Source: Klebsiella phage phiKp_32. From it: 64,000 bases of DNA. The notes below the pieces were generated by a model. The model was not told the origin of the DNA, ran no database searches, and worked only from the letters and a program-made list of their open reading frames with translations. Of the stretch, positions 6,525 to 31,400 are shown piece by piece (position 1 is the stretch's first letter; the number at the start of each line of letters is the position of its first letter). Location of the stretch: sequence record LC768500.1; one strand, 5' to 3'. The translations under genes were made by a program, and so were the position numbers.

Positions 6525-8627
6525 GTGAAACGGAGCTTAAAGATGACTGAGACTTTTTTAAGTCCGTTTGTTGATGACGATTACAGTGCCGATAGGAATA
6601 TCGTTAAACACTATCATGAACAAATGGCTTTGTATCTTGGTAAAAAGCGCAATGAAGATCCTAAAGCTATTTACGAGGTACTTTCCAAACACATCCAGCC
6701 CAATCAAAACGGTTATAAAGATCGTCGTATGCAGGTTTTAGTAAAAAACAAGTACGGCGATAGAGAAGTTAAAGTCATGACAGCGTCTAATTTCTTTAAT
6801 GAAGTTAGACGTCAGAACTGCCATCTTAGTCCCAGTATGGTTGCTTACAAGAACACTGAAGAAGAGCAATCTGTTAATGCAATCGGGACAGAAAAATTTC
6901 TTAGTCTTCGGTCCCACTATAAAGGGTTAAAACAAAAGGCCAGTGACGAAGGTGATGAATGGGGTAAGAAGGCTTTCCACGAAATTCAAAACGCCTTGAA
7001 AATATTCAACAACGCCCAATCAGGCGCAATGTCATCCCGTGGGACCCCTCTTGTTAATAAGTCAGGTCATACTGCTCTGACTAGTGCTTGCCGTGCTTTG
7101 ACCAGTACCGCTAACATGTGTAATGAAAAGTTATTGGTCGGTAACCGATTCTTTAACTCGTACGAGCGAACGATGGAGAACTTACTGTCGTTGCTCTCAG
7201 TTACTGACATTAAGCGAATGGACGAAGTCATCAAGAAACTGAAGATGAACTACGCGACCATAGACCAGGTTATGGAAATGGTCAAACGTTGTTCTCGTCG
7301 GTATTGGAGAGACGTTAAACAACTCGGCTACATTAAAGAGTTTTTGGAGCAACTTCGTCCGGTTGAATTAACGGCTTTGCTTTGCAATATGGATATCGAG
7401 GGATTGAGGGTTACGAATAAAGAAATCCTTTATAAATTCTTTGATGACTTCTCTCATATACCGGAAGTTCCAGAAGGCGCTAAAGCTGAAGATTATACTC
7501 CACCTGATAACGGAGACCGATACATACTTTGTGTTTCTAAACTCTTAGCGAAACCAAGCAAAGTTCAGTTAAACTTTTTAAACCAGTATCATCTGGAAAT
7601 GGAACATAAATGGAAAGACTTTATTGAAGTCTTCTTTAAATGCTCCATTCCTCCATCGGGCATTTATGAAATCAGGGATATGATCCGAGAGGTAGTTCAA
7701 ACCTCAGATACCGATTCCTCGATTTACACCGTAGATAAAGTCGTAGAGGATTACACCGACGAAAAAGGACAATCGTTGAGATTGAATGGGGTTCTTACTT
7801 ACTTCATTCGAATGATAGCGGTTCATCAGCACGCTCAGTTAAGTGAAAACATGAACGTTGCTAAACGTTACCGTAATCGTCTGACGATGAAGAACGAGTA
7901 CTTGTTTGGAGGATATGTTACAACATTAATGTCAAAACACTATTTTGCCACACAGCTGATGGTAGAAGGGGTATTGAATAAAAATGTTGAAATGGAAATT
8001 AAGGGTGTACACTTAAGGAGTTCTAAAGTAGCTCATGAGATAAAGGATTTTGCACACAAACTCATGAGGGAGATATTGGATTGTATTTATGACAAACGTC
8101 AAATGGATGCAGCCGATATTCTCTTTAGAGCAGCAGAGTTAGAAAGGGCCATCATTAAGGATATCAACGAAGGCCAATGGGGTTGGTTAACACGCAACAC
8201 CATAAAAAGTGATGACGTGTACACATTGCCGGATCAATCTGTGTATCAATACCACTTACTCTGGGAAGAAGTGTTCTCTCCTAAATATGGACATGCACCA
8301 CCACCGCCCTATTCTGCTATGAAAGTTAACCTTTATTTAGGTAATAAAGGTAAGGTCGAAGAGTTTTGTAAGGATCTGGAAGACAGAGAACTTGCAAATC
8401 GTTTATTAGATTTCTTCGTTAAGAAAGAGAAAAAAGAAATCAGTACGTTCTTTGTTCCTGCTGACGTATTACCAAGATTAGGTAAATTGCCCGATGAAGT
8501 TATTAAAGCCGCCGACATACGACAGATCATTAAACAGAACTTGAAATCTGTTTACGCTGTTTTGGAAGCCTGCGGATTGTATATTGTAAACGACAAAATA
8601 ACACGATTAATCAGTGACGAGCATTAA
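6525..8627 (+). CDS. large hypothetical protein (700 aa)
   Basis: Long uninterrupted ORF; no motif recognised. Confidence 0.6.
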   Translation: MKRSLKMTETFLSPFVDDDYSADRNIVKHYHEQMALYLGKKRNEDPKAIYEVLSKHIQPNQNGYKDRRMQVLVKNKYGDREVKVMTASNFFNEVRRQNCHLSPSMVAYKNTEEEQSVNAIGTEKFLSLRSHYKGLKQKASDEGDEWGKKAFHEIQNALKIFNNAQSGAMSSRGTPLVNKSGHTALTSACRALTSTANMCNEKLLVGNRFFNSYERTMENLLSLLSVTDIKRMDEVIKKLKMNYATIDQVMEMVKRCSRRYWRDVKQLGYIKEFLEQLRPVELTALLCNMDIEGLRVTNKEILYKFFDDFSHIPEVPEGAKAEDYTPPDNGDRYILCVSKLLAKPSKVQLNFLNQYHLEMEHKWKDFIEVFFKCSIPPSGIYEIRDMIREVVQTSDTDSSIYTVDKVVEDYTDEKGQSLRLNGVLTYFIRMIAVHQHAQLSENMNVAKRYRNRLTMKNEYLFGGYVTTLMSKHYFATQLMVEGVLNKNVEMEIKGVHLRSSKVAHEIKDFAHKLMREILDCIYDKRQMDAADILFRAAELERAIIKDINEGQWGWLTRNTIKSDDVYTLPDQSVYQYHLLWEEVFSPKYGHAPPPPYSAMKVNLYLGNKGKVEEFCKDLEDRELANRLLDFFVKKEKKEISTFFVPADVLPRLGKLPDEVIKAADIRQIIKQNLKSVYAVLEACGLYIVNDKITRLISDEH

Positions 8628-11013: not shown

Positions 11014-13026
11014 ATGTCCGACAATCAAAATGGCAACAACTGGGAACAAACCGTCCTGAACACCGCTGCTGGTAAAGGAGAGCCGATCGTCTCTGCTTCT
11101 GCCGAGAATTTCGGTTCTCAGCTGCTCGGTCTGCTCGGCCAGGCTTCTCTTCTGGGTTCTTCCAAGAACGTGCCGGAAGTAGAAGAAACCGCGGCTTTGA
11201 TCAAGAAACGCGTAACCGATCTGAAAAACGGTACGCCGGGCGAAACCCAGAAGAAGATCCTGCCGGAAGTGAACATCATCACCAAACCGATCATCTCTGC
11301 ACTGCCGGGCATCGTGCTCTCCCTGCACATGAACAACAACCCTGCGGTATACGTCATGCCGGTGCTGTTCTCTAACCGTCATCTGACCAATACCCTGGAA
11401 GAGATCCAGATCGACAACGGCGTTAACCAACAGCGCAAAATGTCCATGCCGTTTACCCCGGATTCCTACGCTCGTGCTGATCTGTTCGAACAGATCAAAA
11501 TGCACTACAAAGCGATGCTCCAGGATAAAGGTGTGAGCGAATGCGTGATCATCAACGTGATGGTTATCGACCTGGAACAGATCGTTGGTGACGATGTCCT
11601 GAATCAGGGCAAATCGCCGCTGCTGCGTGATGAAATCATGCGTAGCTGGGAACAGGGTCTGATGGTACAGATCGCAAAAATCGCAGCTAACCAGCCGAAA
11701 GCATCTCTGCCTTCTCCGTTCTCTGCGACCGGCGGCAAAGCGTATGGTCAGCACGGTAATGCGATTGCTCGCGTTGAACCGATCCGCGGTCAGTATGTTA
11801 ACGAAGGCCTGCTGTCTCCGGCTAACCTGACCATCCGCATGCAAACTGCTAACCATAACGGTTATCAGGGTAATGCTGAGCAGTCCCGCGAAATCGTCAA
11901 CACCTACGCGACCGTTAGCCTGATGGGTTCTCCGATCCAGCAGTTCAACCCGCAGCTGACCGGTAACATTCCGCAGCCGTACCTGCAGACCCCTAACGGT
12001 CGTCCTCAGGGTTACACCCCGCTGCAGCCGATCGTTATCATGAACCACGCTAAAGCTGGCGAGGTGCTGGGTGATGCAACTGGTCTGTCGACCTACTTCA
12101 TGGGCCTGTTCTCTCTGATGGCGACCAACAGCAACTACCTGTTTGCTGAAGCTCTGCGTTCTAAGAACGTAGGTTCTCGTGGCTCCCTGACTGATATGGA
12201 ACACCGCATCCGTCAGATGGAAAATGGATTACCTCCGCGCACTAAGGGTACTGAGATGACCGACGCTAAACTGTCGGATATCGATTTCACCACTAACTGG
12301 ATTCGCGCCAATATTGGACCTAAAGCAGTCTTTGCTGCTGACCTGATCCAGTTCGGCCCGGATGCGGCAATCTCCAACTTCCTGTTCAACCTCACCTCCG
12401 GTGCGAAAGACTACAGCAAATGCGTGAAAACCGTTATTGCTATCGTCGATTCCATCTCCGGTGATGCGAAAGCCATGTCTGCGGTTATCGCAGAAAACCA
12501 GGCCAACAACAATGGTAACGGCGGATGGATTCCGGGTAAACCGGTACTGCACGTTTCTAACGCGCTGATCCCTGTCGGTACTGCTGTACTGGATAACAAA
12601 CGCATTGCGCTCGGCGAAGTGGACGAGATGTTCCTGTCCAAGCACTACAAAGATCAGATCACCCCGATGAACCAGTACCTGGAAAACATGTACGGGTCTA
12701 ACCCGAACGTGCCGGAAAAACTGCGTCGCTATAACCTGCTCATCCAGCTGTCCACCATCTTCTCTGAAGGTGTAAACCTGTTCGGCTTCGCTCGTCGTTG
12801 CTACTGGGATCCGCTGTTCATGGATGCGTTCACTAAAGCGATGAACACCATCGGTTCTCTGCAGGTTACTGGCTCTATGGGTCAGTTCGCTGCTAACGTT
12901 CAGGTCTTCGCTCCTGGCCAGCAGTATATCTCTCAGGCAACTGCTGGTAACTCCGGTGGCGTCGTTCTGGGTAACGGTATGATGCTGGGTGCAGGTGGCG
13001 GTCTGGTGTTTGGCCCGTCCTACTAA
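11014..13026 (+). CDS. chmA: candidate chimallin (ChmA, phage-nucleus shell protein; 670 aa); alternative is another abundant structural protein
   Basis: Strongly host-optimised codon usage and size of about 73 kDa; sits downstream of phuZ. It directly precedes the nvRNAP beta' N-terminal gene, as phiKZ gp54 precedes gp55. No diagnostic motif is known to me. Confidence 0.45.
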   Translation: MSDNQNGNNWEQTVLNTAAGKGEPIVSASAENFGSQLLGLLGQASLLGSSKNVPEVEETAALIKKRVTDLKNGTPGETQKKILPEVNIITKPIISALPGIVLSLHMNNNPAVYVMPVLFSNRHLTNTLEEIQIDNGVNQQRKMSMPFTPDSYARADLFEQIKMHYKAMLQDKGVSECVIINVMVIDLEQIVGDDVLNQGKSPLLRDEIMRSWEQGLMVQIAKIAANQPKASLPSPFSATGGKAYGQHGNAIARVEPIRGQYVNEGLLSPANLTIRMQTANHNGYQGNAEQSREIVNTYATVSLMGSPIQQFNPQLTGNIPQPYLQTPNGRPQGYTPLQPIVIMNHAKAGEVLGDATGLSTYFMGLFSLMATNSNYLFAEALRSKNVGSRGSLTDMEHRIRQMENGLPPRTKGTEMTDAKLSDIDFTTNWIRANIGPKAVFAADLIQFGPDAAISNFLFNLTSGAKDYSKCVKTVIAIVDSISGDAKAMSAVIAENQANNNGNGGWIPGKPVLHVSNALIPVGTAVLDNKRIALGEVDEMFLSKHYKDQITPMNQYLENMYGSNPNVPEKLRRYNLLIQLSTIFSEGVNLFGFARRCYWDPLFMDAFTKAMNTIGSLQVTGSMGQFAANVQVFAPGQQYISQATAGNSGGVVLGNGMMLGAGGGLVFGPSY

Positions 13027-13097: not shown

Positions 13098-16000
13098 GTG
13101 AACGGAGACGTTATGGATCAGTACGGTGATCGTATTATTGATGCATTAACAGCGCCTGAATTTTCATCATTGCAACCAGAGGCTCAGTTTAAAACTTATG
13201 CCGAACAATACGGTGGTGACCTTTCTGACGACAAACGTTTTTATGAACCCCTTTATCCCGACTTCACTGACTATAACCGTTTGCATGATACTGCTAAGGT
13301 CGATCCGGTTTACCTGAACGATTTCGATTTTTGTTTGGAAGAAGACCGAGAACGAATCGCATCTTTGATTCGTATGGACTTCAACACCGACACATTCGAA
13401 ACCGTCGCGAGATGTAGCTGTGGGCATCTGAAGGGCAACTATTTGTTGGGTCAGAAAAGATCATGTCCCATCTGCCAATCCCTTGTAGAGAAAGTCGTAG
13501 AGACTTCCTTAGATACTAAGGTATGGGTCAGGGTTCCAGAAGGCGTAGTTGGATTTATCAGTCCGGCTTATTACAAAACCTTCTTATCGAAGATCGCGAC
13601 TAATTCTCCAAAGATTGAGATCGTGACTTGGCTCATCGATCCGTCTTATCGTCGGGGAAGCCGAGCTCAGCATACTGAGTCTGGTCGTCGGATGTTGGCT
13701 GAACTCGATAAACTCGGAATAGTGCCCGGGCTTAACAGCTTTATATTGAACGCGGACAGATTCATGGAACACTTCCTTGTTGGTGAAGGAAGAGGTGCCG
13801 TGAGCATGAAGCCGGCTGATGGTAAAAAGCATTTGGATAAGTATTACGAATATCGTCATCTTATCTTCCCGCGGTACCTGTCCGTACCCAATAAACTCGC
13901 TACCATCATCGAGCAAGATGGTAAAGATAAGTACGTTTCTTCAACCCAATTGAAAACCTCGGCAATCTACCAATCTATTGCAGATACGAGAGATTCTACT
14001 GAGTTTTATAAATGTACGATTAAGGACCTTAAAGAGAACGCTGATATCGTCGGGAAGGCGATAGTTCGATTAGGTAAACAGAACTCTGATAACTATAAGA
14101 GTCAGCTGTTTGCTAAATCGAGCCTGATACGTAAACACGTAATCGCGGGATCATTATCTTTATCAGGTCGTGGTGTTATCACATCAACGACTGGATTACA
14201 TGATGCCGGTGTTGCTAAGATACCTTGGATCATGGCAGTGGCTATGCTGAAGAAACACATCCTGGGATATCTTTACCGTTTAGGGTACAGCCCCCTGAAA
14301 GCCGAAAGTGTAATCAGTACAGCAGCACACCAAGTCGTCCCGGTAATCGATCAATTCTTTACCAAGCACGAAAAGCAAAAAGACATTGTCTGCATTTTAG
14401 GAAGAAACCCATCAATTCAGTACCTGTCAGCAAAAGCCTTCTTCATGTCGATCAACCGAGATTTAGAAGACGAGTCGATAAACTTACCAATACTCTCAGT
14501 TAAAACCTTTAATGCTAAATCAAGAAGTGAGAGTTCCATACTTTTGTGAGAGAAAGCATGAGAACTATTGAGTTTGAAAGAACACCACGTGAAACAGTAC
14601 TTTTTGAAGAAGACGGTTGGGCTCATCACCCGACTATCAAAAACATCCTATTAAAGGAGAAAGGAAACACTTATCGTTTATTTACCGACGGTAAATGGAA
14701 CGAAGTTATTCCCGAACAAAAATCGAGATACATTTATGTATCCTTTGGCGGGATAGAAATACCCCTTCATCAATTAAAGCTGGAAACCTTTTTAGAAAGA
14801 CCAGCTTCTACCGAAGGACTTAAATTGTTAGGCAATCATATCGATGGTGATATCTTTAATAACGACATCGATAACCTTGAATGGGTGACCTACAGAGGAA
14901 ACATCATTCATGCCTATGAATCAGGATTAAGATCAGATAATAAGCCGTTGGTTTTGGTCGATTTACATTCAGGCGAGGAATTTCCGTTCTATAGCCTAAA
15001 TGAATGTGCTAGATATCTGAAACTTAACCCCTCTAAGATAACCCAGTTTTTGAGAAAGAAGAGAAGTTACCCATTCCAGTGGAAATACGATTTCAAACTA
15101 GATGGGTTGTCTCCTAATAATCTGACCTCTAAAGACGTTGGTAAGGCATCGCAAAATAAACCAAGACCTTTTATTATGCGAAACATAAATACCGGCGAAG
15201 AAAGAGAACTTGGGCTCTATCGTTCGATTAGAAGAATTTGGGGCGTGTCGGAAAGAACTCTCCAAAAAGTTTTAAGCGGTAAAATGAAGATAGATGATGT
15301 TTGGGAATTTGTGCCGATTACTGATCCCGACAGACTTATCCATCTTTCTAATACACTGCCAGACATAAAGGAGGCGTTTGATACAACTTCTAATAGAAAA
15401 AATATGGCGGCTAAAAAGTCTAAAGCGATTAAAGTAACGGGTCCTGATGAAACCACGTTCTATTCGTCTATTAAAGACTTTTCACAGAAAAACGGATTCA
15501 ACGCCGCAACCATACAAAAGTTTATTTATAAGAACCCGGGGAAACCCTGGAAGAATTATGTTATCACGTATGTTTAACTCTCACTTCTTTGGCCCAGTAG
15601 ACGCGAAAGCTCTGCTGCGTACTCTCTCTAATTGCTGGAAACTCCTAAAGCTCGTTCACCTCGTATAGAGGGGTCGAAAGACAGAAACAACGAACGAGAT
15701 ATCTCACGCTAACCAATAATGCTAAAAGATAAATAATGGGTTACCTAGCAGCGAACCCTACCTCGGTAGGAGACGTTCAACGACTAGAGCTGAAACGCTC
15801 GTAGGATCCTAGTGTGGATCCGAAATGGGAGAGGACCTAAGTTTGACAGTAGTCAAATATGGTTAAGATATAGTCTGTGCCCTCAGGAAATCTGAGGGAG
15901 GGTGTCTCAGCACACCTGCTCCATATGGAACGGAGTGGACAATCAGGATTTTGACGGTAAACGTATTGCCGCCTAGCTTAGTAATGAGTTAGTGAATAAG

Positions 16001-17854: not shown

Positions 17855-17931
17855 TTGACATGCAGATAATTATACATCGATATCATCAGGGTGTATAAAC
17901 AAATGAATATTTTATTTATAAGGAATCTATT

Positions 17932-18523: not shown

Positions 18524-19285
18524 ATGTCCGACAAAATGCCATCCGAACACTACGCGCTTAAATTCTTAGAGGGCGGTGTCCCTAAAGTTATCAATGGTAA
18601 ACGCTACCTGGAAATGAACGGCGAACTGGTGAACGTCGCCACTTCTATTTCAGAGGCGACCTTCGTCAGAGATTGGCTTCTCGGATTCTCGTTAGGTTAT
18701 GTCGGCGAGAAGTCTTATTTTGATTTTGCACGGTGGATGGAAATTAGTAACGAAGGACGTTCGGCTGTTATCGTCCATGATAACGAAGACGAAAATAAAC
18801 CTATCTTTGTTGTTCCTCCTCTGACCGATACGAAAATGACGGCTCAGGAAATGGAAGTTCTTCAGGTAGCCGCTGGCGTGATGAGCAATGCTTATGGCGC
18901 GCAATTCGGCGGATCGACCAGCAGAAGTACCGAAATACTTTTACAGGGTCTGTCCATTATCCAAAAAGGTCTGCAGTCTGGCGAATACACCATAACTGAT
19001 CTCGTCCCACCCTTCATCTATGAAAAATACTCGATCAATCCTCGAGTATTTAAAAAGATGATGCATTGTAAAAATACCTTTGGGTTGGATACCAATGATG
19101 AGAGCTGGAAAGTTCTAGAAGCTTGTTTCAGAGTTATTGACGAAGGCAAAGTGTTAAAACAACAGCAGTACGACTTCTTAATGGCGATCACGCAAAATAC
19201 AGCAATCGTCCCTGATCAATGTAAACCTGACAGTAAAAATAAACAGGAAGATCAATTTACAGAGATCAACCCATTTGAGTGTTAA
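18524..19285 (+). CDS. hypothetical protein (253 aa)
   Basis: gagagg SD upstream of ATG. Confidence 0.55.
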   Translation: MSDKMPSEHYALKFLEGGVPKVINGKRYLEMNGELVNVATSISEATFVRDWLLGFSLGYVGEKSYFDFARWMEISNEGRSAVIVHDNEDENKPIFVVPPLTDTKMTAQEMEVLQVAAGVMSNAYGAQFGGSTSRSTEILLQGLSIIQKGLQSGEYTITDLVPPFIYEKYSINPRVFKKMMHCKNTFGLDTNDESWKVLEACFRVIDEGKVLKQQQYDFLMAITQNTAIVPDQCKPDSKNKQEDQFTEINPFEC

Positions 19286-20418
19286 GCATGATTAATTCCC
19301 CCAAGAAAATTAGGATGTTGTGGTCAAGTGATCATCACACACTTCATGAAGGAACCCCCACAGTTCACATCTTAAGTAACCTGGGGGAATTCTTTTATAA
19401 GTACAACTCCCTGGCAGAAACAGACATCGTTGTTTTTGGCGGTGATTTTTTTCATAAGTTAGTCGATGCTTCTAACAGCTCGATGCGTTTATGTGAATAT
19501 TGGATTAATAAATTTTTAATCCGGTGTGCTGAAAATAACGTTGTGGTGAGGGTACTGGAAGGGACGAGTTCCCACGATTGGGAACAGCCGGAAATATTTC
19601 AGATACTGAGCCCGGATAACCTTGATTTAAAGTGGGTTAAAGAGCTAAGCATCGAACGTATTGAAAAACTGGACATGACCGTTCTTTACGTTCCGGATAA
19701 CATGGGAGGTAAGAAGCCCGAGGTTATTTGGGATGAGGTCATCGATCTTCTAACTAAGCATAACCTGGAGAAGGTAGATTTTATCTTTTTCCACGGATCG
19801 TTTAAATACCAATTAGACGAACGTTTCAGTAAACACAGTCACGATGAAAAATTGTGGTCGACGATTGTTAACTATTATATCTTTGCCGGACATATCCACA
19901 AACCCTCGGAATGTGGGCCGATCAGATGTTCAGGATCCTTCGATAGAACAGGTCATTCGGAGGAGCATCCTAAAGGCGGATATATTGTTGATTACTTCCC
20001 AGAAGATAAGAAGTGCACCGCCACCTTTTATGAGAATAAAAAGGCGCTGCCTTATATCACCCTGAGAATTACACCGGAAACAACAACAGAAGAACTAAAT
20101 GATAAGCTTGGGTTCCTAATGGATAAGCGATACCCCAAAGCCAGTCATTTTTGGATCAGAGGAGGGAATCCTCTCGTCGTTAATCCGATCATTCAGTTCT
20201 TCAAACAACAATATCCTCAGTATGACTTTAAGAAAGAAAACGTTGTTACTCATGAAGCAGTAATTGACGATGAGCTTTATACTGAAGATCTTTATTCTGG
20301 TATAACGTTAACGAAAGATAACATCATCCCTTCTCTAATGGGCTATTTGAATAAGAAGATTTTGTTAGTGGATGAAGAGTTAGATTCCCTAACAAAAACA
20401 ATGGAGGAGTTTATCTAA
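19279..20418 (+). CDS. calcineurin-like metallophosphoesterase, SbcD/Mre11-like nuclease
   Basis: Motifs SDHH (D-x-H), GGDFFH (GDxxD-like), GTSSHD (GNHD-like), FFHGS and AGHIHKP (GHxH). Confidence 0.6.
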   Translation: MLSMINSPKKIRMLWSSDHHTLHEGTPTVHILSNLGEFFYKYNSLAETDIVVFGGDFFHKLVDASNSSMRLCEYWINKFLIRCAENNVVVRVLEGTSSHDWEQPEIFQILSPDNLDLKWVKELSIERIEKLDMTVLYVPDNMGGKKPEVIWDEVIDLLTKHNLEKVDFIFFHGSFKYQLDERFSKHSHDEKLWSTIVNYYIFAGHIHKPSECGPIRCSGSFDRTGHSEEHPKGGYIVDYFPEDKKCTATFYENKKALPYITLRITPETTTEELNDKLGFLMDKRYPKASHFWIRGGNPLVVNPIIQFFKQQYPQYDFKKENVVTHEAVIDDELYTEDLYSGITLTKDNIIPSLMGYLNKKILLVDEELDSLTKTMEEFI

Positions 20419-21218
20419 TGAGGGCGTTAGGGGCGTTAAATATCTCGGTAGGGACGTCTTTAGCATTCGAAGGGGCGGCTAAAATACAGTTGCTCCAATC
20501 GGACTCCTTACTTATCAATCTACGGACGATAGCACGTAATGCCAGGGAGGCTTACGATAAAGATGATTCCGACGGAAAGGATGTCGATCTTCTTACAGCA
20601 GCGGCAAGCGATGATTTGATAGGTCTTATTAAAACCGTTCAGGGATGGATGGGGCAAAAAACGATCAATCTTATCGTTTATCTTCCTTCTTACAGATCGC
20701 TCCCTAAGATTTTTAAAAGGGCGAATCTCTGGGAACCGACAACGGATATCCAGAAAGAAAAAGATAGACTTGATACCGCCATACTGAACAATTTAAAAAA
20801 ACGGTTCGGGGCTAACATTAAAGAGACGGATGTCAACCTTCCTGAATTTATAGGGAATGGTTTGATTTTAACGCATCACCCCATCGATCTTGTTATGACA
20901 GGAAGCGGGACAAGGTTGCGTTTAATCGAATCCTATACTGGGACTTTGAAAGGACATTCTCAGTGGTACACGAAATTTTCCGGTGGGGAAAAATTGTTCA
21001 ATATTCCCCTAAACAAATTAACCATTCAGATATTCGGGGATGGTCCGGTTAATTTTAAATCGGAAAAAAGTCATAAACTTAAAGACCTAATAAAAGATAT
21101 CGCTATTAAAGGTAAATGGACTTCAGTGACCACCCTGGATGGTGTGAGATCAAGTATTAACGCTCACGCCAAAGGATTTGATCGAGATGGATTATTAATA
21201 CTTTTAAACGGCGGGTAG
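20418..21218 (+). CDS. hypothetical protein (266 aa)
   Basis: ggagga SD; start overlaps the stop of the upstream gene. Confidence 0.55.
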   Translation: MRALGALNISVGTSLAFEGAAKIQLLQSDSLLINLRTIARNAREAYDKDDSDGKDVDLLTAAASDDLIGLIKTVQGWMGQKTINLIVYLPSYRSLPKIFKRANLWEPTTDIQKEKDRLDTAILNNLKKRFGANIKETDVNLPEFIGNGLILTHHPIDLVMTGSGTRLRLIESYTGTLKGHSQWYTKFSGGEKLFNIPLNKLTIQIFGDGPVNFKSEKSHKLKDLIKDIAIKGKWTSVTTLDGVRSSINAHAKGFDRDGLLILLNGG

Positions 21219-21258
21219 CTTTATATTAGCACAAACCCAATTTCAAAGGATTTACGTC

Positions 21259-22008
21259 ATGAGTGATTTCAACAACGGTAACAACGGTAACTCCCGTCCC
21301 AAAACTCCACTGAACGATTATCGCTACCCACATCCTAAAACCAAAGAGCCTCTTCCTGGTGGTAAATACCCGGCGCAAATGTACTGGGAGCTGACTGCCG
21401 CCGGCAAGATCGTTTTCAAAGTGCAGGATGGTGTGTTCGGCGGTGGCGATAACGCGTACAAGAAAAAAGAAATTGAAATGATCGCGTTCGAACGCAATGC
21501 CATTTTCCAGCTTCTCAGAGAAGCGGCGACCGATCCTAATTTCACCAAATCCCAATACACGGTTCGTGATCGTCAATTCATTCGTGAAGGTGGTCAGTCT
21601 AAGATGTCTGACAACCCGATGACCATCGGTGTGTTCACAGTCATCCGCGATTCGAACGGTGTTGTTCAGCTCGGATTCAGCAAGTCTGATTTCAAAGCTC
21701 TGTTCGTTTTCGACAATGCCCGCGAATCCACTCTGGTCGATTTTGTCGATGGCGAATTCAAACCGGCTCACGGTCGCATGAGTCGTCTGTACGTTCTCGG
21801 GTATCTTTCGGCCGTGGAAGGTTGGCTTAACGCTGCTGAGTTCTCTCGCTATCAGCCACCTAAACCTAAAAATGGTGGTAATGGTAACGGTGGCGGCGGT
21901 GGCTGGAACAACAATAACGGCGGCAACCGTGGTAACGGCGGTGGTAACAGTTGGGGCGGCGGCGGTAATGCGCCGGTCGATGACTTCGCGGAAGACATTC
22001 CGTTCTAA
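21259..22008 (+). CDS. putative ssDNA-binding-type protein with G/N-rich linker and an SSB C-terminal-tip mimic (…DDFAEDIPF)
   Basis: The C-terminus PKPKNGGNGNGGGGGWNNNNGGNRGNGGGNSWGGGGNAPVDDFAEDIPF resembles the E. coli SSB linker and DDDIPF tip. Host-optimised codons. Confidence 0.5.
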   Translation: MSDFNNGNNGNSRPKTPLNDYRYPHPKTKEPLPGGKYPAQMYWELTAAGKIVFKVQDGVFGGGDNAYKKKEIEMIAFERNAIFQLLREAATDPNFTKSQYTVRDRQFIREGGQSKMSDNPMTIGVFTVIRDSNGVVQLGFSKSDFKALFVFDNARESTLVDFVDGEFKPAHGRMSRLYVLGYLSAVEGWLNAAEFSRYQPPKPKNGGNGNGGGGGWNNNNGGNRGNGGGNSWGGGGNAPVDDFAEDIPF

Positions 22009-22022
22009 ACACAAAGATACTC

Positions 22023-22060
22023 TCTCCTACTCCCTAGGGAGTAGGAGATTACTTTTCGTT
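22023..22060 (+). terminator. terminator hairpin (TCTCCTACTCCC family)
   Basis: tctcctactccc-ta-gggagtaggaga followed by a T-rich tail. Confidence 0.5.
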
Positions 22061-22126: not shown

Positions 22127-23713
22127 GTGGAATTTAAACTCAGTTTAAAACAGAGCGGGAAAAGTCCATTTGCTGGAGTTATTGCGCAATATGGCGAAAG
22201 TGTTATCGAGTTCAAAGGCAGTGGCAGATTAAATTGTGGTACGATTTACGATGATCTTTTCTTTTCTTTTAACGAATACGTCGGGCATTTAGAAGAAAAG
22301 AATAAAGCCCGTTTATGGGAACTGATGGTTGCGGGTAAGACCATTTTGGATCCTTCTTATTTCGACATTGATAACGTCGACGAAGAACTGATGTTGAACA
22401 ACCGGGATTATAATTTCCTCGTTAAGAAACTCAAGCCCATCGTCGCTGAAATCTTCGATGTGTTGAAAATGAAGAACTATGAGTACTTCATGGAACAGTC
22501 CGGGTATATCGATCCGCCTAAAGATCTTACCTCGATGTCTGGTCTTGGGGAGTATCCCGCTGAGACAACTATCACCGCCGAAGATTATCGTAATCTGGCA
22601 GCGTTGGTTTTAGGTTTACGCGGCCCACTGCCCATCATCACCGAGATGATTTATAAAGTCGAGAGTATCGCCGGTAAAGCATATAAGGAAGTCGTAGCTG
22701 GGGATCTGATAAACGATATCGAGTGGGTCAAGCAACACGTCGGCTGGAATCGTTTAAACGAGTATATCTCTTTTACTTATAGCGCGAAGGGAAGGGGTCC
22801 TAATGGACTGAGAATCGATATTGTCAGTGACGATCGGTTCACTACTCATGTCGTCTATAAGGCGTTGTTCGGGCGTTTATGTTTAAGTCACGTACCCAGC
22901 AAAGATCCACGAAAGAATTTGGTTAAATCGCTTTATTCCATCGTCAACCAATCCGACAAAGTCCCGAGTAGTGTAAGGGAGAAGAAAGGGGGAGGGAAAG
23001 ATGAGAGTAACGATAGAAGGAGTTCTTACGAGATCTATCAGTTACGAGAAGAAGTGAACGCAACCGATGAAGCGGCTGTGGCCGAGTTCTTTACGTTCGG
23101 TATGTTTGATGAAGATGACAATCCGATTTATAAAGATCGATTCGTACATCAGTGTAACGGTTTGAACATAGCTGATCCTAACAAAGCAGAAATTCTACAT
23201 GATCTTCTGCCGGATAACTGGGATTATGAACCGAGACAGCATATCGTTAAATTATGTCAGATGGCTTTCTCTGACGACATTCCCTTTAACATTTATTATG
23301 CGTTGGATTATCATCAATTGATGTCGGCCATTGTTTTGGCTCAGTTAAAGTTGCATCAAATGGGATATCCTCACCTCGCGGTATTGTTAACGTCGGTTGA
23401 GGATCCTGAAGGTGAGCGAATTAACGCAGACGTAATCTTCTCTTTAAACCAAACAGAACGTCAACGTATCGAATCGTTATGTGATGTAGTTAAAGGAGAC
23501 GGCGCCACATCAACTAATAACGAAGCAGTATCAGCGGCACTTGAGTTCTTTAAGGAACTCGGTAACAGTGCATGGCAGTCAACCATAGAGCTTGGTCTTA
23601 TCGATGACGATAAAGCTTTAGAAAGTGCACCACGTGGTTTTTTATACGAAGTCAATTTGGATATTCAGATTAAAGAAGAGTTCATTCGTCTTTATGAAGA
23701 AATCAACAGCTAA
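22127..23713 (+). CDS. hypothetical protein (528 aa, GTG start)
   Basis: gggag SD upstream of GTG; AT-rich ctatattattttac promoter-like motif upstream. Confidence 0.6.
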   Translation: MEFKLSLKQSGKSPFAGVIAQYGESVIEFKGSGRLNCGTIYDDLFFSFNEYVGHLEEKNKARLWELMVAGKTILDPSYFDIDNVDEELMLNNRDYNFLVKKLKPIVAEIFDVLKMKNYEYFMEQSGYIDPPKDLTSMSGLGEYPAETTITAEDYRNLAALVLGLRGPLPIITEMIYKVESIAGKAYKEVVAGDLINDIEWVKQHVGWNRLNEYISFTYSAKGRGPNGLRIDIVSDDRFTTHVVYKALFGRLCLSHVPSKDPRKNLVKSLYSIVNQSDKVPSSVREKKGGGKDESNDRRSSYEIYQLREEVNATDEAAVAEFFTFGMFDEDDNPIYKDRFVHQCNGLNIADPNKAEILHDLLPDNWDYEPRQHIVKLCQMAFSDDIPFNIYYALDYHQLMSAIVLAQLKLHQMGYPHLAVLLTSVEDPEGERINADVIFSLNQTERQRIESLCDVVKGDGATSTNNEAVSAALEFFKELGNSAWQSTIELGLIDDDKALESAPRGFLYEVNLDIQIKEEFIRLYEEINS

Positions 23714-23746: not shown

Positions 23747-25219
23747 ATGTCTACTGAAGGCAAAATCTATCTGGTCCGTGCGCGTTTTGGTTTGGCGAAC
23801 ATCTATCAAAATCAGGTGAATAGAACACAGAGCATGAGTATCAACTCCCAAGATGTCGATCTGCTCAACGTTTCAAAAATTAATGGTCGGGTTAGCCAGA
23901 ACACATTGCACGAAATCGGCGTGCGGACAGGTGGAGTGTCCACTCAAGCCGACGGTTACGCGTTTATCGAAGATGGCTGGGATGCACCCCGTCGTGGTCT
24001 GGCGATGCTTGAATTCGAAATTGAATCAGCAATGAACGTCGAAGAAAAACTTCATATCCTCGGTTATTTAGCTGGCGGTAGTGCGTCTGTTGATGAAGGT
24101 GTTCCGGAAGACGTTATGTTTGTCCCGGTGCGTAATTGGGTGGTTAACAAAACCATGCAAATGTTACACACCGGCATGATGAAATCCACAAGTAATTTGA
24201 CAAGTGCGTCTCAGGTCCTTTTAAACAACCCGATGTCTTCAGGTGGCTCGTTCGCTATTCGTCCTCTGGATATTGTTGACGGCGCCTCAGGTATGGTCGC
24301 TGATGACGTCCAGGACCAATCGATGAATGGCGGGATGGAATCCCAGTATGTCGGAACCAGTAACTCCATCCTTCAGCATACTGGCGCTGCTTACTCTAAA
24401 GCCAAAAACCAATCTCCGGGGGAATATGCGAAACAATTGCTCAAGTCGAGTTTACGAGCCGGGTCCTCTATGGAGACTTCTCGTGATCCGTATGGATCCA
24501 TGGGTGATGCATGCATGGACCCTGGTCTGAGCGAGACGGCCCTGCATCGAGACCCGTTCTTTAAAACCATGCGTCATGCGTTAGGCATGGGTCAGATGCA
24601 AGGATTCCAAGGTTTCTCCGTGGGTCAGATCGCATACGTCTTTGAGAATCTTCCTGACGTTATGGACCTCAGTACGTGTGACGACAATCGTTTCCAGATA
24701 GAGGACCATCGACTGACGACGAATGAACTGGGGTCGTCTAACTATAACGAAATCATCGGCAATGAGTTGAGTAGCCTGGCGCAGTATATCCTCGTTGAAT
24801 CAGAGTTGGGTTATCTGGACATCGTAGCAACTAACAATGTCCAGAATTCCGTCGATAGCATCAATGGAATGCCGGTAGGTTTCATTGTGGGGGAATCCGG
24901 GCTATTGGTTGATGGACTGGAAGGTTCTTTGGAGGAACGTGTAGAGAAAGCAAAAGAGCTCTTCTTGAGCCATTTCTTCTTGAAGTACGCTACTCCGTAT
25001 CTGCACGACCGCACTTTGATCAGCTTCCGTATGACGATGCGTCTCTTCGGCGAAACCGTTATCGAGATCTTCACTAATGGTGATGAAAGCAACAAACGCC
25101 GTATCGCTTTCCCGACCTTCTCGACTAACCGAACCGACCTGACTCTGGCGTCTATGGAATCCGCGGTTAATACCGGGACGACTTTCTTCCGTAACCTGAA
25201 AGACTATTTTAACTTTTAA
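23747..25219 (+). CDS. hypothetical protein (490 aa)
   Basis: agga SD upstream of ATG. Confidence 0.6.
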   Translation: MSTEGKIYLVRARFGLANIYQNQVNRTQSMSINSQDVDLLNVSKINGRVSQNTLHEIGVRTGGVSTQADGYAFIEDGWDAPRRGLAMLEFEIESAMNVEEKLHILGYLAGGSASVDEGVPEDVMFVPVRNWVVNKTMQMLHTGMMKSTSNLTSASQVLLNNPMSSGGSFAIRPLDIVDGASGMVADDVQDQSMNGGMESQYVGTSNSILQHTGAAYSKAKNQSPGEYAKQLLKSSLRAGSSMETSRDPYGSMGDACMDPGLSETALHRDPFFKTMRHALGMGQMQGFQGFSVGQIAYVFENLPDVMDLSTCDDNRFQIEDHRLTTNELGSSNYNEIIGNELSSLAQYILVESELGYLDIVATNNVQNSVDSINGMPVGFIVGESGLLVDGLEGSLEERVEKAKELFLSHFFLKYATPYLHDRTLISFRMTMRLFGETVIEIFTNGDESNKRRIAFPTFSTNRTDLTLASMESAVNTGTTFFRNLKDYFNF

Positions 25220-27463: not shown

Positions 27464-30400
27464 ATGGCAGAAAAATTTGTCTATAAGAAACCCATAAACC
27501 AGCTTAAACCAGAGTTGATGTCTATCAATATTAACTTGAACTCATTTCCCTGGTCGGTTTCATCGTCACGTCAATATATGTTGGGTGGTAACGTAGCTAA
27601 AGCAGTTTCCATACAAGGGGCGTCGACAAGACGCAATCCTACCGGCTTCGAACCAGAATATGCTAAGTACGCTCGTAAAGTCGTAGCCCCGTCAAACATG
27701 ACTGTAGAGAGAACATTTTATCAGCGATCTCTACAACCCGGTAGCAATCTTGCAGATGATTGGGCGGAGATCCACGTTATCTTCTTTAATGAAGAACACC
27801 AGCTTTATGATCTCTTAACTATTCCACGATTTAATACGCAGAATACTTACGTTGGGTTTGAGTACAAACTTAACAAGGATAACCTTCGTAAACTCAGTAC
27901 AGAATCACCGACCTTTAAGAAAGGCGATGTGTTTGCGTATTCTCCAAATATCAGCGATACTGGAGAGTGGATGTTTGGTACTGAGGCGATGGTTTGTGGG
28001 ATGACCGCACCTTATACCGAAGAAGACGGCATTGCTATTACTGAGAGCTTTGCTCGTAAGCTGACCAGCATCTTCCAGCATTCTCGTAAGTTCTCCTGGA
28101 ACGAAGCAGAGTACGTCCCCCTGAATCTTTATGGAACATTAGATTCCCCACGACCGTTCCCTGAGAACGGAGAAAGTATTCGTAGTGACGGCATCGTCAT
28201 GGGATTCCGTAGACGTGACACTTCGAGCGCTCTGGTGGGCTTAACCAAAAAAGCACTCATGCGTCCTGATCAAACTTATGATATTCTTTTCTACGCACCT
28301 AAAGATTGTGTTGTTAAAAATATCTCCGTCAAGTCAGATCGTTATAAGAACGTTTCCAATAACAAACGTCAGGAGAAGATTACTCAGCCTCACACTCAGT
28401 TGCTGGAACGTTATGAACAGCGCTCTAACCAAATGGCGTTTGAGGTCCAGGAGTGGTATTACCGGATGGATGCGAAGTTTAAAGATTCCGATCTTCCTTT
28501 CACCCATGCGCTCCAAGAGTTCATCTCTAAACAGTTAGGCGACGTCACTAAAAACTTCGCTACCGGCAAGTATAACCAGGTCAAGCGAACTCACCGCAAT
28601 AAGGCGCTTTTGGATTGGAACGTCGAGATTACTTTAAAGGAAAGAGTCACTGCGCGTAAACGTTTTAAAATTACCGACACTCAAGGTGCTTCGCCCCACA
28701 AGTATCCGTTATCTTAAAATGATGTTGGGGTTGTAAAGACTTTTTGAAGGAGGTCTTTATGACGGTGAAATTGATAGGAAATCCCGATATAGAAGTAGAC
28801 TTACTCGAAAAGTCTTTATTTATAAAGGGAGAAGAAATTATTGAAGGGAACGCCTTCCGAGTAGATTTATTCGGTGGAAGTTTCCAAGTGACACGGGAAT
28901 GGCTAATCTCGTTCGCTCGTTATAACTTGGATATCCCAAAAGAGCATGTCGATAAAATAACCTTTATTCGATTTGCTAAAACATGGTCTCCGTTTCGTAA
29001 AACCAATAAGCGATACGAAATACCCGTCTTTGACGAACCTATGGTTTCTGAAGACGGATACGCGATCATACCAACCGATTTTGAATATGAAATTAGTCGG
29101 GAAGGAGTTATTAGAAATCGTAAGACCAAACGAATCGCTCCATTGTACGAGAAAGACTACCTTTTTTGTTCGCTAAAGGGAGAGGAAAGGTTACATCGTA
29201 CTGTGGCTCTTGTTTGGTGCTATAACGAGAACTTCGAAACACGACCGATTGTTAATCATAAAGATGGAAATAAGCTTAATCCTCACGCAGATAACTTGGA
29301 ATGGTCATCGTTTTCTTTAAACGCAATTCATGCGTTTAAAGAAGGGCTTAGGGATGATAATAAGCCTTGTGTGATGAGGAACATCTTTACCGGAGAGGTT
29401 ACTGAGTTTTATTCGGTAAGTGCCGTTGCTTATGAATTCGGACTAGGATTTGAGTCAGCCTTCGCGTACCTTAAACGTAAAATGCGGCAATCCCCTTTCA
29501 TGAAAGAATATGAGTTTGTGTTGAAAGGAGATCCTTGGGAAATTCCGTTGGGCGGTATAAAGGGAGTAAGAGGGCGGTATCTCTTCACTATAGAAAAACC
29601 AAATGGTGAAGTGGTATACCGGACCAATATCCCTAAAATCATATCCGAATTCAAGTTATGGAATCTCCCGAGTTGGTCGAAGGATTGCGTTGTAGAAAGG
29701 ATGAAGGAAGAACATCCCGATTGGTCGATTTCTGTTATTGATTACTTTAGGGCGGGCGAGTATCAGGTCAAAAACCTACAAACCGGAGAAGTGATCGATT
29801 TCGTAAAACCCGCCGAAGTATCCGGGTTGATAGGCGTCCCTCGTCAAACCATTAATAAGTGGTTAACCGAAAAACAATTTAACGTCAATCACAACGGTTG
29901 GGTATTCAGGGAGAAATCATCTTCTGAATGGGATGAGGTTTTCCCGAAACCCAATTCTAAGAAAGCGGTATTGGTGACCGACATCAATACAGGTAAAGTG
30001 TCTGAGTTTGAATCCGTAATAGCCGCGGCTTCTCACTTTGGTATTAACAAACGTTCAGTGGGTAGAAGGATACTATCCGGAAGTCTTTTCGAGAGCAAGA
30101 AGTTTAGTTACAAGCCCCAACATCCTTCATAAGACATTTGATATTTGTGAGACAGGGCCGGCTAGGCACGAAAGTCCTAGACCGTTATCTCTTTGAATTG
30201 CTGGAAAAACCACAAAAGTCTGATGCCTGCTTAGCAGGAGGGGATAACCCGGAAATAAGTTCAGACCTGACCTATGCTAACCAATAACGCTAAGGGTCGT
30301 TAAAAAGGGTGGATCAGCAGCGAACCCTACTTCGGTAGGAGGCGTTCAACGACTAAGGCCTAACCAGCCTGTACTGGAGACATGATGTTTCTGGGAAGTG

Positions 30401-31400
30401 GAGAGAGACCTAAGTTCGGCTCTAGCCGAATATGGTTAAGATATAGTCTGTTCCCTAATAACACTAGGGCGGGTGTCTTCGCACACCGGGTTCCACGATG
30501 GAACTGGACAAAAAGAAAGGTGTAATCGTTCACATTATACCCGATGCTAACGCACCGCGATACGCCGATGGACGTCGATCAGAAGTCATTATTAACAATA
30601 CTCCTGCTTTTAGACGCCAGATCTTTTCGGCGTTAATAGAAGCTGGGGTTAACTTAATAGGCTTGGAGATCGAAAACAGGATCAGAGTTCTCGTTGCTCA
30701 AAATGGAGGGTATAAGAAAGCTTATCAGGAGCTCATTAAGTTTTATCGTTCTACCGCTCCGGAGTTCGCTGATATCGTTGATACCGCTCTCCCCACGGAA
30801 GAAGAACAATTCGATCACGTTGACTTTGTGTTGAGTGATAAGATCTCTGTTCAGCGTCGAAGCGACACTCAGCTGTATGGCGCGGATATTCTGAGATTGA
30901 TGCGGGAAACCTATCCGGATATCAAACCTCAAAAGGCAATTTACGTTAACGAGCTCGGTCAGGAAATCACCACCATGTTCCCTGTCAGTATCAGCAGCAT
31001 GTATTACATCCTGCTTGATAAGTTCGGTAACGATATGAGTTGCCAGTCATTCCCTAAGCGTAACGTGTACGGTCTGCCGTCTAAGTTGAATCATGGCGAT
31101 CGTTATAGGGATTGGCACCGCGCTCAACCAGGTCGTAATATGGGTGAGGCAGAATCACGTCAGAAAAATACTCAAATGGGGGGAGAGGAAGTTGTAAGGC
31201 AGTTGGCGGCAGCTAACTCCCCTTACGTTTGTATCATGATGACGAAACGTATTATTCGGGCTGATAATCCGTTCCGAATTAAAACCATTATTAAACCTGA
31301 AGAGTATGCGATGAGCCGATCTTTGGGAATGACGATGAATTTACTCAACGACGCGGGTTATACTTTACGTAAGGAAAAAGACAGTGATCTTACTTCGTGA
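27464..31400 (+). CDS. multisubunit RNAP beta-like C-terminal subunit, interrupted by a group I intron. Predicted exons 27464-28690 and 30516-31400, about 703 aa
   Basis: MTAPYTEEDGIAITE matches beta MPWNGYNFEDSILVSE. The junction TQGA|KGVIVHIIPDANAPRYADGRRSEVIINNTPAFRRQ matches [20 protein letters not shown]…VLNPLGVPSRMNIGQ. MYYILLDK…DMSCQSF and LGMTMNLL match the beta C-terminus. Confidence 0.55.
28691..30515 (+). mobile_element. group I intron with HNH homing-endonuclease ORF; paralogous to the 14517-15946 intron
   Basis: Core at 30270-30515 is about 75% identical to 15700-15946: aaccaataaYgctaa, cagcgaaccctacYtcggtagga, gttcaacgactaRg, gacctaagtt, aatatggttaagatatagtctgt. The 3' end uggacaaaaaG parallels uggacaaucaG. 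Confidence 0.55.
28744..30132 (+). CDS. HNH homing endonuclease with NUMOD-like repeats (intron-encoded)
   Basis: VNHKDGNKLNPHADNLEWSS HNH motif; three repeats NIFTGEVTEF…, NLQTGEVIDF…, DINTGKVSEF…. Confidence 0.7.
   Translation: MKEVFMTVKLIGNPDIEVDLLEKSLFIKGEEIIEGNAFRVDLFGGSFQVTREWLISFARYNLDIPKEHVDKITFIRFAKTWSPFRKTNKRYEIPVFDEPMVSEDGYAIIPTDFEYEISREGVIRNRKTKRIAPLYEKDYLFCSLKGEERLHRTVALVWCYNENFETRPIVNHKDGNKLNPHADNLEWSSFSLNAIHAFKEGLRDDNKPCVMRNIFTGEVTEFYSVSAVAYEFGLGFESAFAYLKRKMRQSPFMKEYEFVLKGDPWEIPLGGIKGVRGRYLFTIEKPNGEVVYRTNIPKIISEFKLWNLPSWSKDCVVERMKEEHPDWSISVIDYFRAGEYQVKNLQTGEVIDFVKPAEVSGLIGVPRQTINKWLTEKQFNVNHNGWVFREKSSSEWDEVFPKPNSKKAVLVTDINTGKVSEFESVIAAASHFGINKRSVGRRILSGSLFESKKFSYKPQHPS

Follow-up and report, generated by a model that had tools for sequence, protein, structure and literature searches.

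Nucleus-forming jumbo phages make an abundant, early and essential protein called Chimallin C (ChmC), alias Imp6, which is known as PhiPA3 gp61, phiKZ gp67, Goslar gp176 and 201phi2-1 gp123 (Enustun et al., NAR 2024, PMC11077065); a further source on ChmC/Imp6 is Kokontis et al. (bioRxiv 10.1101/2024.03.27.586873). Here we analyzed a stretch of 64,000 nucleotides of Klebsiella phage phiKp_32 (LC768500.1; the window), which represents 64 kb of a jumbo-phage genome whose close relatives measure ~255 kb, and we assign its gene at 21259-22008, with near certainty, as the ortholog of ChmC in its Miami-group version. [quoted passage not shown]

During infection by PhiPA3 and 201phi2-1, ChmC is the second most abundant non-structural protein after ChmA, and it was picked up by proximity labelling from both ChmA and the nuclear recombinase UvsX (PMC11077065). 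The PhiPA3 protein is a homotetramer that binds nucleic acid cooperatively, with a dissociation constant (Kd) of 58 nM for single-stranded RNA (ssRNA) and 184 nM for single-stranded DNA (ssDNA; Hill coefficient ~2.4), and triple mutants of either Lys (K30/K48/K59) or Arg (R35/R44/R63) lose binding to both RNA and ssDNA (PMC11077065). Its condensates with RNA need the C-terminal 48 residues (204-251): deleting them abolishes condensates and shell localisation and leaves the tetramer and RNA binding intact (PMC11077065), which argues that the tail is functional and separable from nucleic-acid binding, as it is in SSB. The same paper divides the tail into ~40 N/G-rich residues and, after these, an 'electronegative cluster' of ~15 residues rich in S/D/E, and reports a GFP-ChmC pulldown, in which the C-terminus was free, that recovered ChmB, RNA polymerase subunits and ribosomal proteins, with no SSB-interactome proteins reported (PMC11077065).

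Inside infected cells, ChmC localises at or in the phage nucleus, where the PhiPA3 protein decorates the shell, and enhanced crosslinking and immunoprecipitation (eCLIP) shows it enriched on phage mRNAs, near start codons. Knockdown of ChmC in Goslar arrests infection, and the nucleus stops growing. The phiKZ protein gp67/Imp6 directly binds the nuclear import factor Imp1/PicA (gp69) and has a part in bringing in some cargos; imported proteins include at least one from the host, TopA. As a whole, these data favour an RNA-linked role, given the three-fold tighter binding of RNA, the eCLIP signal on mRNAs, the shell localisation and the contact with Imp1.

Assignment of 21259-22008 to the ChmC/Imp6 family

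The gene and the parts of its product are as follows.

21259-22008, + strand: coding sequence of the ChmC/Imp6 ortholog, ATG to TAA, 249 amino acids plus stop (open reading frame and translation)
21259-21870, + strand: Whirly/PUR-like single-stranded nucleic-acid-binding domain, residues 1-204 (predicted fold)
21871-21975, + strand: Gly/Asn-rich disordered linker, residues 205-239 (sequence, pLDDT <50)
21976-22005, + strand: SSB-Ct-like acidic tip VDDFAEDIPF, residues 240-249 (sequence, family consensus, HMMER alignment)

The 249-residue protein thus consists of a globular domain of ~200 residues, a Gly/Asn linker of 35 residues and the tip; the translated 249-codon open reading frame (ORF) terminates in ...KPKNGGNGNGGGGGWNNNNGGNRGNGGGNSWGGGGNAPVDDFAEDIPF, and the C-terminal end of the product reads ...NGGNGNGGGGGWNNNNGGNRGNGGGNSWGGGGNAPVDDFAEDIPF. 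It belongs to phrog_3284 (E 7e-58), a PHROGs family labelled 'unknown function' that is also matched by phiKZ gp67 (6e-80), PhiPA3 gp61 (6e-81) and Goslar gp176 (1e-35), and the family profile aligns with phiKZ gp67 in hhalign at a probability of 98.2% (E 4.9e-14, 186 columns). Since pairwise BLASTP between the window protein and phiKZ gp67 was not significant (E 0.65), orthology had to be traced through profiles, PHROGs and gene order, and identity to the characterised orthologs is only ~17-23%. The gene order is that of phiKZ gp65-gp69, namely SbcD-like nuclease, gp66, ChmC, gp68 and Imp1. Besides PHROG and gene neighbourhood, the likeness to the ChmC/Imp6 proteins of PhiPA3, phiKZ, Goslar and 201phi2-1 extends to profile homology of the globular domain, a Whirly/PUR fold, a length of ~250 residues, the tail and the kind of phage; every defining feature of the family that could be tested (homology, fold, tail and neighbourhood) was found in the window protein. 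The initial annotation had taken the protein to be novel, a view that the PHROG and the hhalign match overturn, as it is an ortholog of the characterised ChmC/Imp6.

Among nearer relatives, the protein is 96-97% identical to gp293 of Klebsiella phage Miami, annotated 'hypothetical protein'. A word-indexed search returned 60 homologs of 223-268 residues on jumbo-phage-sized contigs, and an exhaustive profile search returned 684 clusters at 50% identity, nearly all of 225-275 residues. A Pfam scan of the window protein (E up to 10) found no family, its lone match to FliM (E 0.29) being spurious. In GenBank/RefSeq, PHROGs v4 and BFVD the family is still 'hypothetical', of 'unknown function' or 'uncharacterized', although it was characterised in 2023-2024, and the relative in Kosakonia phage Kc263 is annotated as a 'hydrolase', a label that is probably wrong. 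The assignment also bears on public annotation of the family.

On the predicted structure, the N-terminal ~200 residues are a Whirly/PUR-type single-stranded nucleic-acid-binding domain. AlphaFold2 modelled the window protein with a predicted local distance difference test (pLDDT) score above 90 at residues ~20-200 and below 50 at 211-246, the linker thus being predicted to be intrinsically disordered; structural matches in BFVD were the EL and Eowyn orthologs. The Whirly/PUR/MRP family (plant Why1/Why2/PBF-2, Pur-alpha and Trypanosoma brucei MRP1/MRP2) comprises binders of ssDNA and ssRNA, and ChmC is alike by fold only: the window protein has no Pfam match to the plant-type Whirly family and no KGKAAL motif. 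At the N-terminus of the core lies a conserved short segment, R13-K-T-x-x-N-D-Y-R. Some of the basic residues that PhiPA3 ChmC requires for binding RNA and DNA appear to align at or beside conserved Lys or Arg of the window protein: at ~20% identity and with a register uncertain by about one residue, K48, K59 and R44 of PhiPA3 pair with the conserved K54, K69 and K50, and K30 falls a single column away from K36, a nearly invariant residue, whereas R35 and R63 are matched to Y42 and E73.

The oligonucleotide/oligosaccharide-binding (OB) fold that forms the core of bacterial SSB (PF00436) was looked for in the window protein and was not found, nor was any sequence or structural likeness to SSB in the first 200 residues; a profile search of the PDB gave no match to the globular domain and returned only non-significant matches to the tail. 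This agrees with the initial annotation, which had judged by eye that the first 200 residues do not resemble the SSB OB fold and had suggested the fold check reported here. That annotation had further staked its SSB-like reading on ssDNA binding, an activity that the PhiPA3 ortholog does possess (the Kd of 184 nM given above).

The linker and the SSB-like tip across the family

We examined the tail in 60 close homologs and in 149 diverse representatives of the 50%-identity clusters, the best-scoring matches of the family profile, anchored on their C-termini. The three-part architecture is conserved in both sets, and the layout of linker and acidic tip is kept in 60/60 close homologs. The family linkers are poorly conserved and consist of 55% Gly plus Asn with 6% acidic residues, against an acidic share of 39% in the last eight positions. 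The last seven residues converge on the consensus F-D-D-D-I/L-P-F, which equals the tip of bacterial SSB, with the following counts by position from the C-terminus.

Position -7: F in 36/149
Position -6: D in 87/149
Position -5: D in 107/149
Position -4: D in 107/149
Position -3: I in 62/149 and L in 41/149 (I/L 103)
Position -2: P in 107/149
Position -1: F in 88/149, and M, W, L or Y in a further 47

Information content runs from 1.9 to 2.7 bits at positions -6 to -1 (2.65 at the Pro), compared with ~1 bit in the linker. Exact DDDIPF endings occur in 17 of the 149 representatives, 70% end in [ILMVF]-P-hydrophobic, and the final residue is hydrophobic or aromatic in 93%; DD-[IL]-P-x is seen even in members whose alignment to the profile stops short of the tip. 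PMC5872125 describes DDDIPF as the conserved SSB-Ct hexapeptide that contacts SSB partners. Among 57 aligned close homologs, all but one carry the terminal Phe beside a hypervariable linker, which indicates a specific contact. In the window, an aromatic last residue together with at least three acidic residues among the last eight is found in one of 175 ORFs of 60 residues or more, the ChmC ortholog.

In HMMER alignments, the end of the family profile pairs residue for residue with ...PMDFDDDIPF of Escherichia coli SSB (1eqq_A) and also with that of another SSB (7f2n_A); taken over the whole alignment, the E-value falls short of significance, as expected because the motif is short and follows low-complexity sequence, and the 54-residue tail alone found no match in the PDB by phmmer with low-complexity filtering. 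The tip is not a chance feature, and, judging from these alignments, a tail with SSB architecture is a conserved, selected feature across the ChmC family. As to the architecture of the tail, the initial annotation, which had described a G/N-rich linker followed by a mimic of the SSB C-terminal tip, holds for the whole family and not for the window protein alone.

The window protein carries a mild variant of SSB-Ct, in which the last four residues (DIPF) are identical. Together with the family consensus DDDIPF, its tip DDFAEDIPF is much closer to SSB-Ct than are the more degenerate tips of the studied orthologs (PhiPA3 GFDDEIPNF, phiKZ AFDEDMPSF, Goslar VAFDGLAF and 201phi2-1 ELASFDW). These degenerate tips may explain both the label 'electronegative cluster' and the absence of SSB from the literature on ChmC: we found no SSB link to ChmC or to chimalliviruses in the literature searched (the ChmC papers, recent reviews and the core-genome paper), a search that left most subscription-journal papers outside its reach. 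The family-wide SSB-Ct motif on ChmC is thus the new point, unmentioned in that literature, and the gene itself is of an already known kind.

E. coli SSB and the ChmC family have in common an oligomeric single-strand-binding core, a disordered linker that is rich in Gly and a few dozen residues long, and an acidic tip ending in I-P-F (family consensus FDDDIPF, E. coli ...DFDDDIPF), and ChmC orthologs further share the tetrameric state, cooperative ssDNA binding and tail-driven phase separation; the linker of E. coli SSB is likewise reported to drive phase separation. They differ in that the ChmC core is of Whirly/PUR type, the ChmC linker is N-rich and not Q/P-rich, so that the linkers are alike in composition only, and the ortholog prefers RNA. 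T7 gp2.5 and T4 gp32 resemble ChmC as phage single-strand binders with an acidic C-terminus, and T7 gp2.5 also in its conserved terminal aromatic residue. In these two proteins the acidic C-terminus serves as a docking site for proteins of the phage replisome and vies with DNA for the binding cleft of the same protein, and the terminal Phe of gp2.5 is essential. Both, however, have an OB fold and lack the I-P-F motif and the long Gly/Asn linker, whereas ChmC has documented mRNA binding. Bacterial SSB, T7 gp2.5 and T4 gp32 were therefore rejected as families for ChmC on account of the fold, since the OB fold was tested and is absent; the window protein shows the Gly-rich linker and acidic tip (AEDIPF) of the bacterial SSB family, and the logic of the tail is common to all.

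Common ancestry of the ChmC and SSB linkers is not shown by a shuffle test (local alignment, 300 composition-preserving shuffles per sequence): the window linker, tip excluded, scored z = -0.1 against the E. coli SSB linker, and the family gave a median z of 0.9, with z >3 in 7%. A subclade with the family members P0018, P0019, P0021, P0028 and P0036, with tails of the form ...GGGQRQQQSAPxMDF[DE]DIEF, has pre-tip residues that resemble E. coli SSB ...QSRPQQSAPAAPSNEPPMDFDDDIPF (z ~3.3-3.6), GGGQRQQQSAP being likened to QSRPQQSAP of SSB. There are hints in these sequences that some tails may share ancestry with SSB tails, with no significance family-wide. The SSB-like tail of ChmC may have been captured from an SSB or may have converged on it.

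Candidate roles of the tip

Taking these lines together, we consider it fairly probable that the window protein is a ChmC ortholog organised like SSB on a different fold, with the tip as a docking motif; the mechanism of the tip is the uncertain part and is drawn by analogy. The tetrameric Whirly core would coat the single-stranded nucleic acid that arises within the phage nucleus, namely nascent mRNA and probably also the ssDNA of replication and recombination, and the flexible linker would give reach, multivalency and condensation. The tip would then act as a short linear docking motif for partners with a pocket of the SSB-Ct type, the side chain and free carboxylate of the terminal Phe inserting into a hydrophobic pocket that is rimmed by basic residues. 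A free tip would probably bend back onto the basic surface of ChmC itself and compete there with nucleic acid, as described for SSB, T4 gp32 and T7 gp2.5.

As for the partner, many members whose host SSB ends in IPF carry IEF, IDF, IPNF, MPSF or LAF. This drift of the tip (IEF, IDF, IPNF, MPSF) despite IPF-ending host SSBs makes the main partner more likely a co-evolving protein that is phage-encoded or nucleus-associated than a member of the host SSB interactome; to judge from the sequences, such a co-evolving phage partner fits the drift better than strict host mimicry would. ChmC has a full SSB-like layout, in which a single-strand binder that forms tetramers is followed by a disordered linker and the SSB tip, within a phage group without an identified SSB, and the tip makes recruitment by ChmC, an SSB role in the phage nucleus and the coupling of RNA export, replication and protein import testable.

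Several observations weigh against a docking tip. The PhiPA3 deletion took linker and tip together, so that the tip's own share was not separated (PMC11077065), and Goslar ChmC without its C-terminal region still formed shell-associated puncta. FLAG-tagged phiKZ gp67 still bound Imp1, which, if the tag was C-terminal, means that this contact does not need a free C-terminus. The window tip AEDIPF matches SSB-Ct DDDIPF exactly at four of six positions and conservatively at one, short of a full match. Because the tip columns were part of the profile whose best-scoring matches supplied the 149 representatives, tip-bearers may be slightly over-represented among them. The docking and auto-inhibitory roles themselves would be carried over from SSB, gp32 and gp2.5 by analogy.

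A broader proposal, which we hold only tentatively, is that ChmC is a functional SSB of non-OB, Whirly fold that acquired its tail by convergence or capture, and whose 'SSB code' organises replication and recombination proteins inside or at the phage nucleus and might license, via Imp1, the import of host enzymes that normally dock on host SSB. If true, the lack of an SSB in phiKZ-like phages that was remarked on in 2016 would be accounted for, and one abundant protein would link mRNA handling, replication and nuclear import. A related and rather doubtful version makes ChmC the SSB that has been missing from nucleus-forming jumbo phages, with a role in both replication and recombination: it would chiefly cover ssDNA at forks and in recombination intermediates within the nucleus, and its tip would recruit the phage polymerase, UvsX, the SbcCD-like nuclease and similar proteins, with RNA binding as a secondary property or by-product. 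Several lines fit this version: sensitive profile methods detected no SSB in phiKZ-like phages (2016), which was 'rather surprising' to the authors; in the literature, a classic OB-fold SSB marks the other jumbo-phage group and not the phiKZ group; and the core-genome paper and recent reviews make no mention of an SSB. The protein itself has the tetramer, the cooperative ssDNA binding (Hill ~2.4), the disordered linker and the SSB-Ct consensus tip, it was proximity-labelled from UvsX, it is very abundant and its knockdown halts nucleus growth, and the plant Whirly proteins are organellar ssDNA binders. [quoted passage not shown] The experimental record speaks against the version more directly, as RNA is bound three-fold tighter than ssDNA, eCLIP enrichment falls on phage mRNAs near start codons, PhiPA3 ChmC decorates the shell and does not fill the nucleus, and the pulldown gave RNA polymerases and ribosomal proteins.

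Mimicry of the host SSB C-terminus, in which the tip would serve as a decoy for ExoI, RecQ, PriA, RecO, Pol III chi and Topo III or would capture them for import through Imp1, appears improbable to us. The consensus is identical to SSB-Ct, with the exact DDDIPF in 17/149 and D-I-P-F kept in the window protein; Imp6 binds Imp1 and aids the import of some cargos, host TopA is imported, and the abundance of ChmC would suffice for competition with the SSB of the host. The penultimate Pro, however, is replaced or displaced in many members (IEF and IDF in those of Aeromonas/E. coli type, IPNF in PhiPA3, MPSF in phiKZ, LAF in Goslar and FDW in 201phi2-1), and in E. coli the ssb-113 change of Pro to Ser at this same position disrupts partner binding. 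In addition, no SSB-interactome protein was reported among the GFP-ChmC interactors, and the host chromosome is degraded early in infection, which makes a decoy less valuable. The initial annotation, whose interpretation is partly supported overall, had offered as alternatives a novel phage SSB that borrows the partners of host SSB and a decoy that sequesters them.

Least probable of all is that the tip is a generic 'electronegative cluster' for solubility, less non-specific binding or the tuning of condensation, its SSB-Ct likeness being incidental: this follows the interpretation of the original ChmC paper (PMC11077065) and suits the acidic enrichment of the last eight residues (39% vs 6% in the linker) and the acidic Goslar and 201phi2-1 tips with little SSB-like order, but charge alone is insufficient because the non-acidic I/L (103/149), P (107/149, 2.65 bits) and terminal Phe or other hydrophobic or aromatic end (93%) are conserved by position.

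Expression signals and gene neighbourhood

The gene is flanked by two expression signals.

21245-21250, + strand: Shine-Dalgarno-like AAGGA (AAAGGA), 8 nt 5' of the ATG (read from the sequence)
22023-22060, + strand: intrinsic-terminator-like hairpin with T-rich tail (terminator scan and sequence)

The hairpin proper (22023-22048) begins 15 nt past the stop codon and has an 11-bp stem with 6 GC pairs; the Miami record has a terminator annotated at the same place and a ribosome-binding site at the place equivalent to AAAGGA. With an effective number of codons (Nc) of 45.9, the gene ranks fourth in codon bias among 41 window genes, the ChmA shell gene being second. The description of the gene as codon-optimised and of its product as abundant, made at the outset, is moderately supported by this bias, the Shine-Dalgarno-like site, the terminator and the abundance of the orthologs, and the window protein is probably abundant. 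An antisense ORF of 262 residues at 21226-22014 was rejected as a mechanical artefact that stems from how codons are used in the + strand gene, as conservation lies on the + strand.

Two jumbo phages of ~255 kb, Raoultella phage VB_ZK_P1 and Klebsiella phage Miami, share 96-97% identity with the region, and both records label the ChmC gene 'hypothetical protein'. The genes that define the phage and the neighbourhood of ChmC are listed below.

6525-8627: divergent family B DNA polymerase (PolB; PF20286)
11014-13026: ChmA nuclear shell protein (phrog_4795, E 8e-100)
13098-14549: nvRNAP beta subunit gene
19279-20418, + strand: SbcD-like nuclease subunit, equivalent of phiKZ gp65 and in the same position (phrog_100, E 6e-41)
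20418-21218, + strand: phiKZ gp66 ortholog, upstream neighbour of ChmC (BLASTP 29% identity, E 1e-24; phrog_3229)
22127-23713, + strand: phiKZ gp68 ortholog, downstream neighbour (phrog_3209 common to both; BLASTP E 2e-5)
23747-25219, + strand: phiKZ gp69 ortholog Imp1/PicA, two genes 3' of ChmC (phrog_3141 common to both)

Several nvRNAP subunits are encoded in the window, phiKZ gp68 being described in the literature as one, and together with ChmA and the divergent PolB they identify the phage as a nucleus-forming chimallivirus; the phage nucleus presumed in the initial annotation is borne out by the ChmA gene. Pairwise BLASTP between the product of 23747-25219 and phiKZ gp69 was not significant (E 0.72). 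On a 210-kb contig with a distant metagenomic member, the sizes of the neighbouring genes follow a matching order, a likeness judged by size alone.

At 20418, the stop of the SbcD-like gene shares one base with the start of the gp66-like gene, a sign that the two may be translationally coupled. The gp66-like gene always lies between the nuclease gene and ChmC and is conserved from phiKZ (29% identity).

Relative to Miami, where the gene is contiguous, an insertion of ~1.8 kb at 28690-30515 splits an RNA polymerase beta-type subunit gene, whose N-terminal part occupies 27464-28717 and which appears to resume in the ORF at 30498-31400 (Miami homology from 30516). Within this insert lie an ORF for an HNH homing endonuclease (28744-30132) and an Rfam match to a group I intron (30118-30469; RF00028, 51.3 bits). 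A second HNH/NUMOD ORF (14546-15577), followed by a group I intron match (15572-15898; RF00028, 58.6 bits), lies directly 3' of the nvRNAP beta gene, an arrangement (14546-15898) that resembles the HNH gene gp56 after gp55 in phiKZ. Miami in turn carries a 1266-nt insertion with the 'transposase' gp287 (NC_070950, 238489-239754) that is absent from the window at 17886-17905, with flanks 97-99% identical. The most codon-biased genes of the window are ChmA (11014-13026, Nc 33.6) and, ahead of it, 57714-58979 (421 residues, Nc 32.1), whose product may likewise be made in very large amounts, as a structural protein might be.

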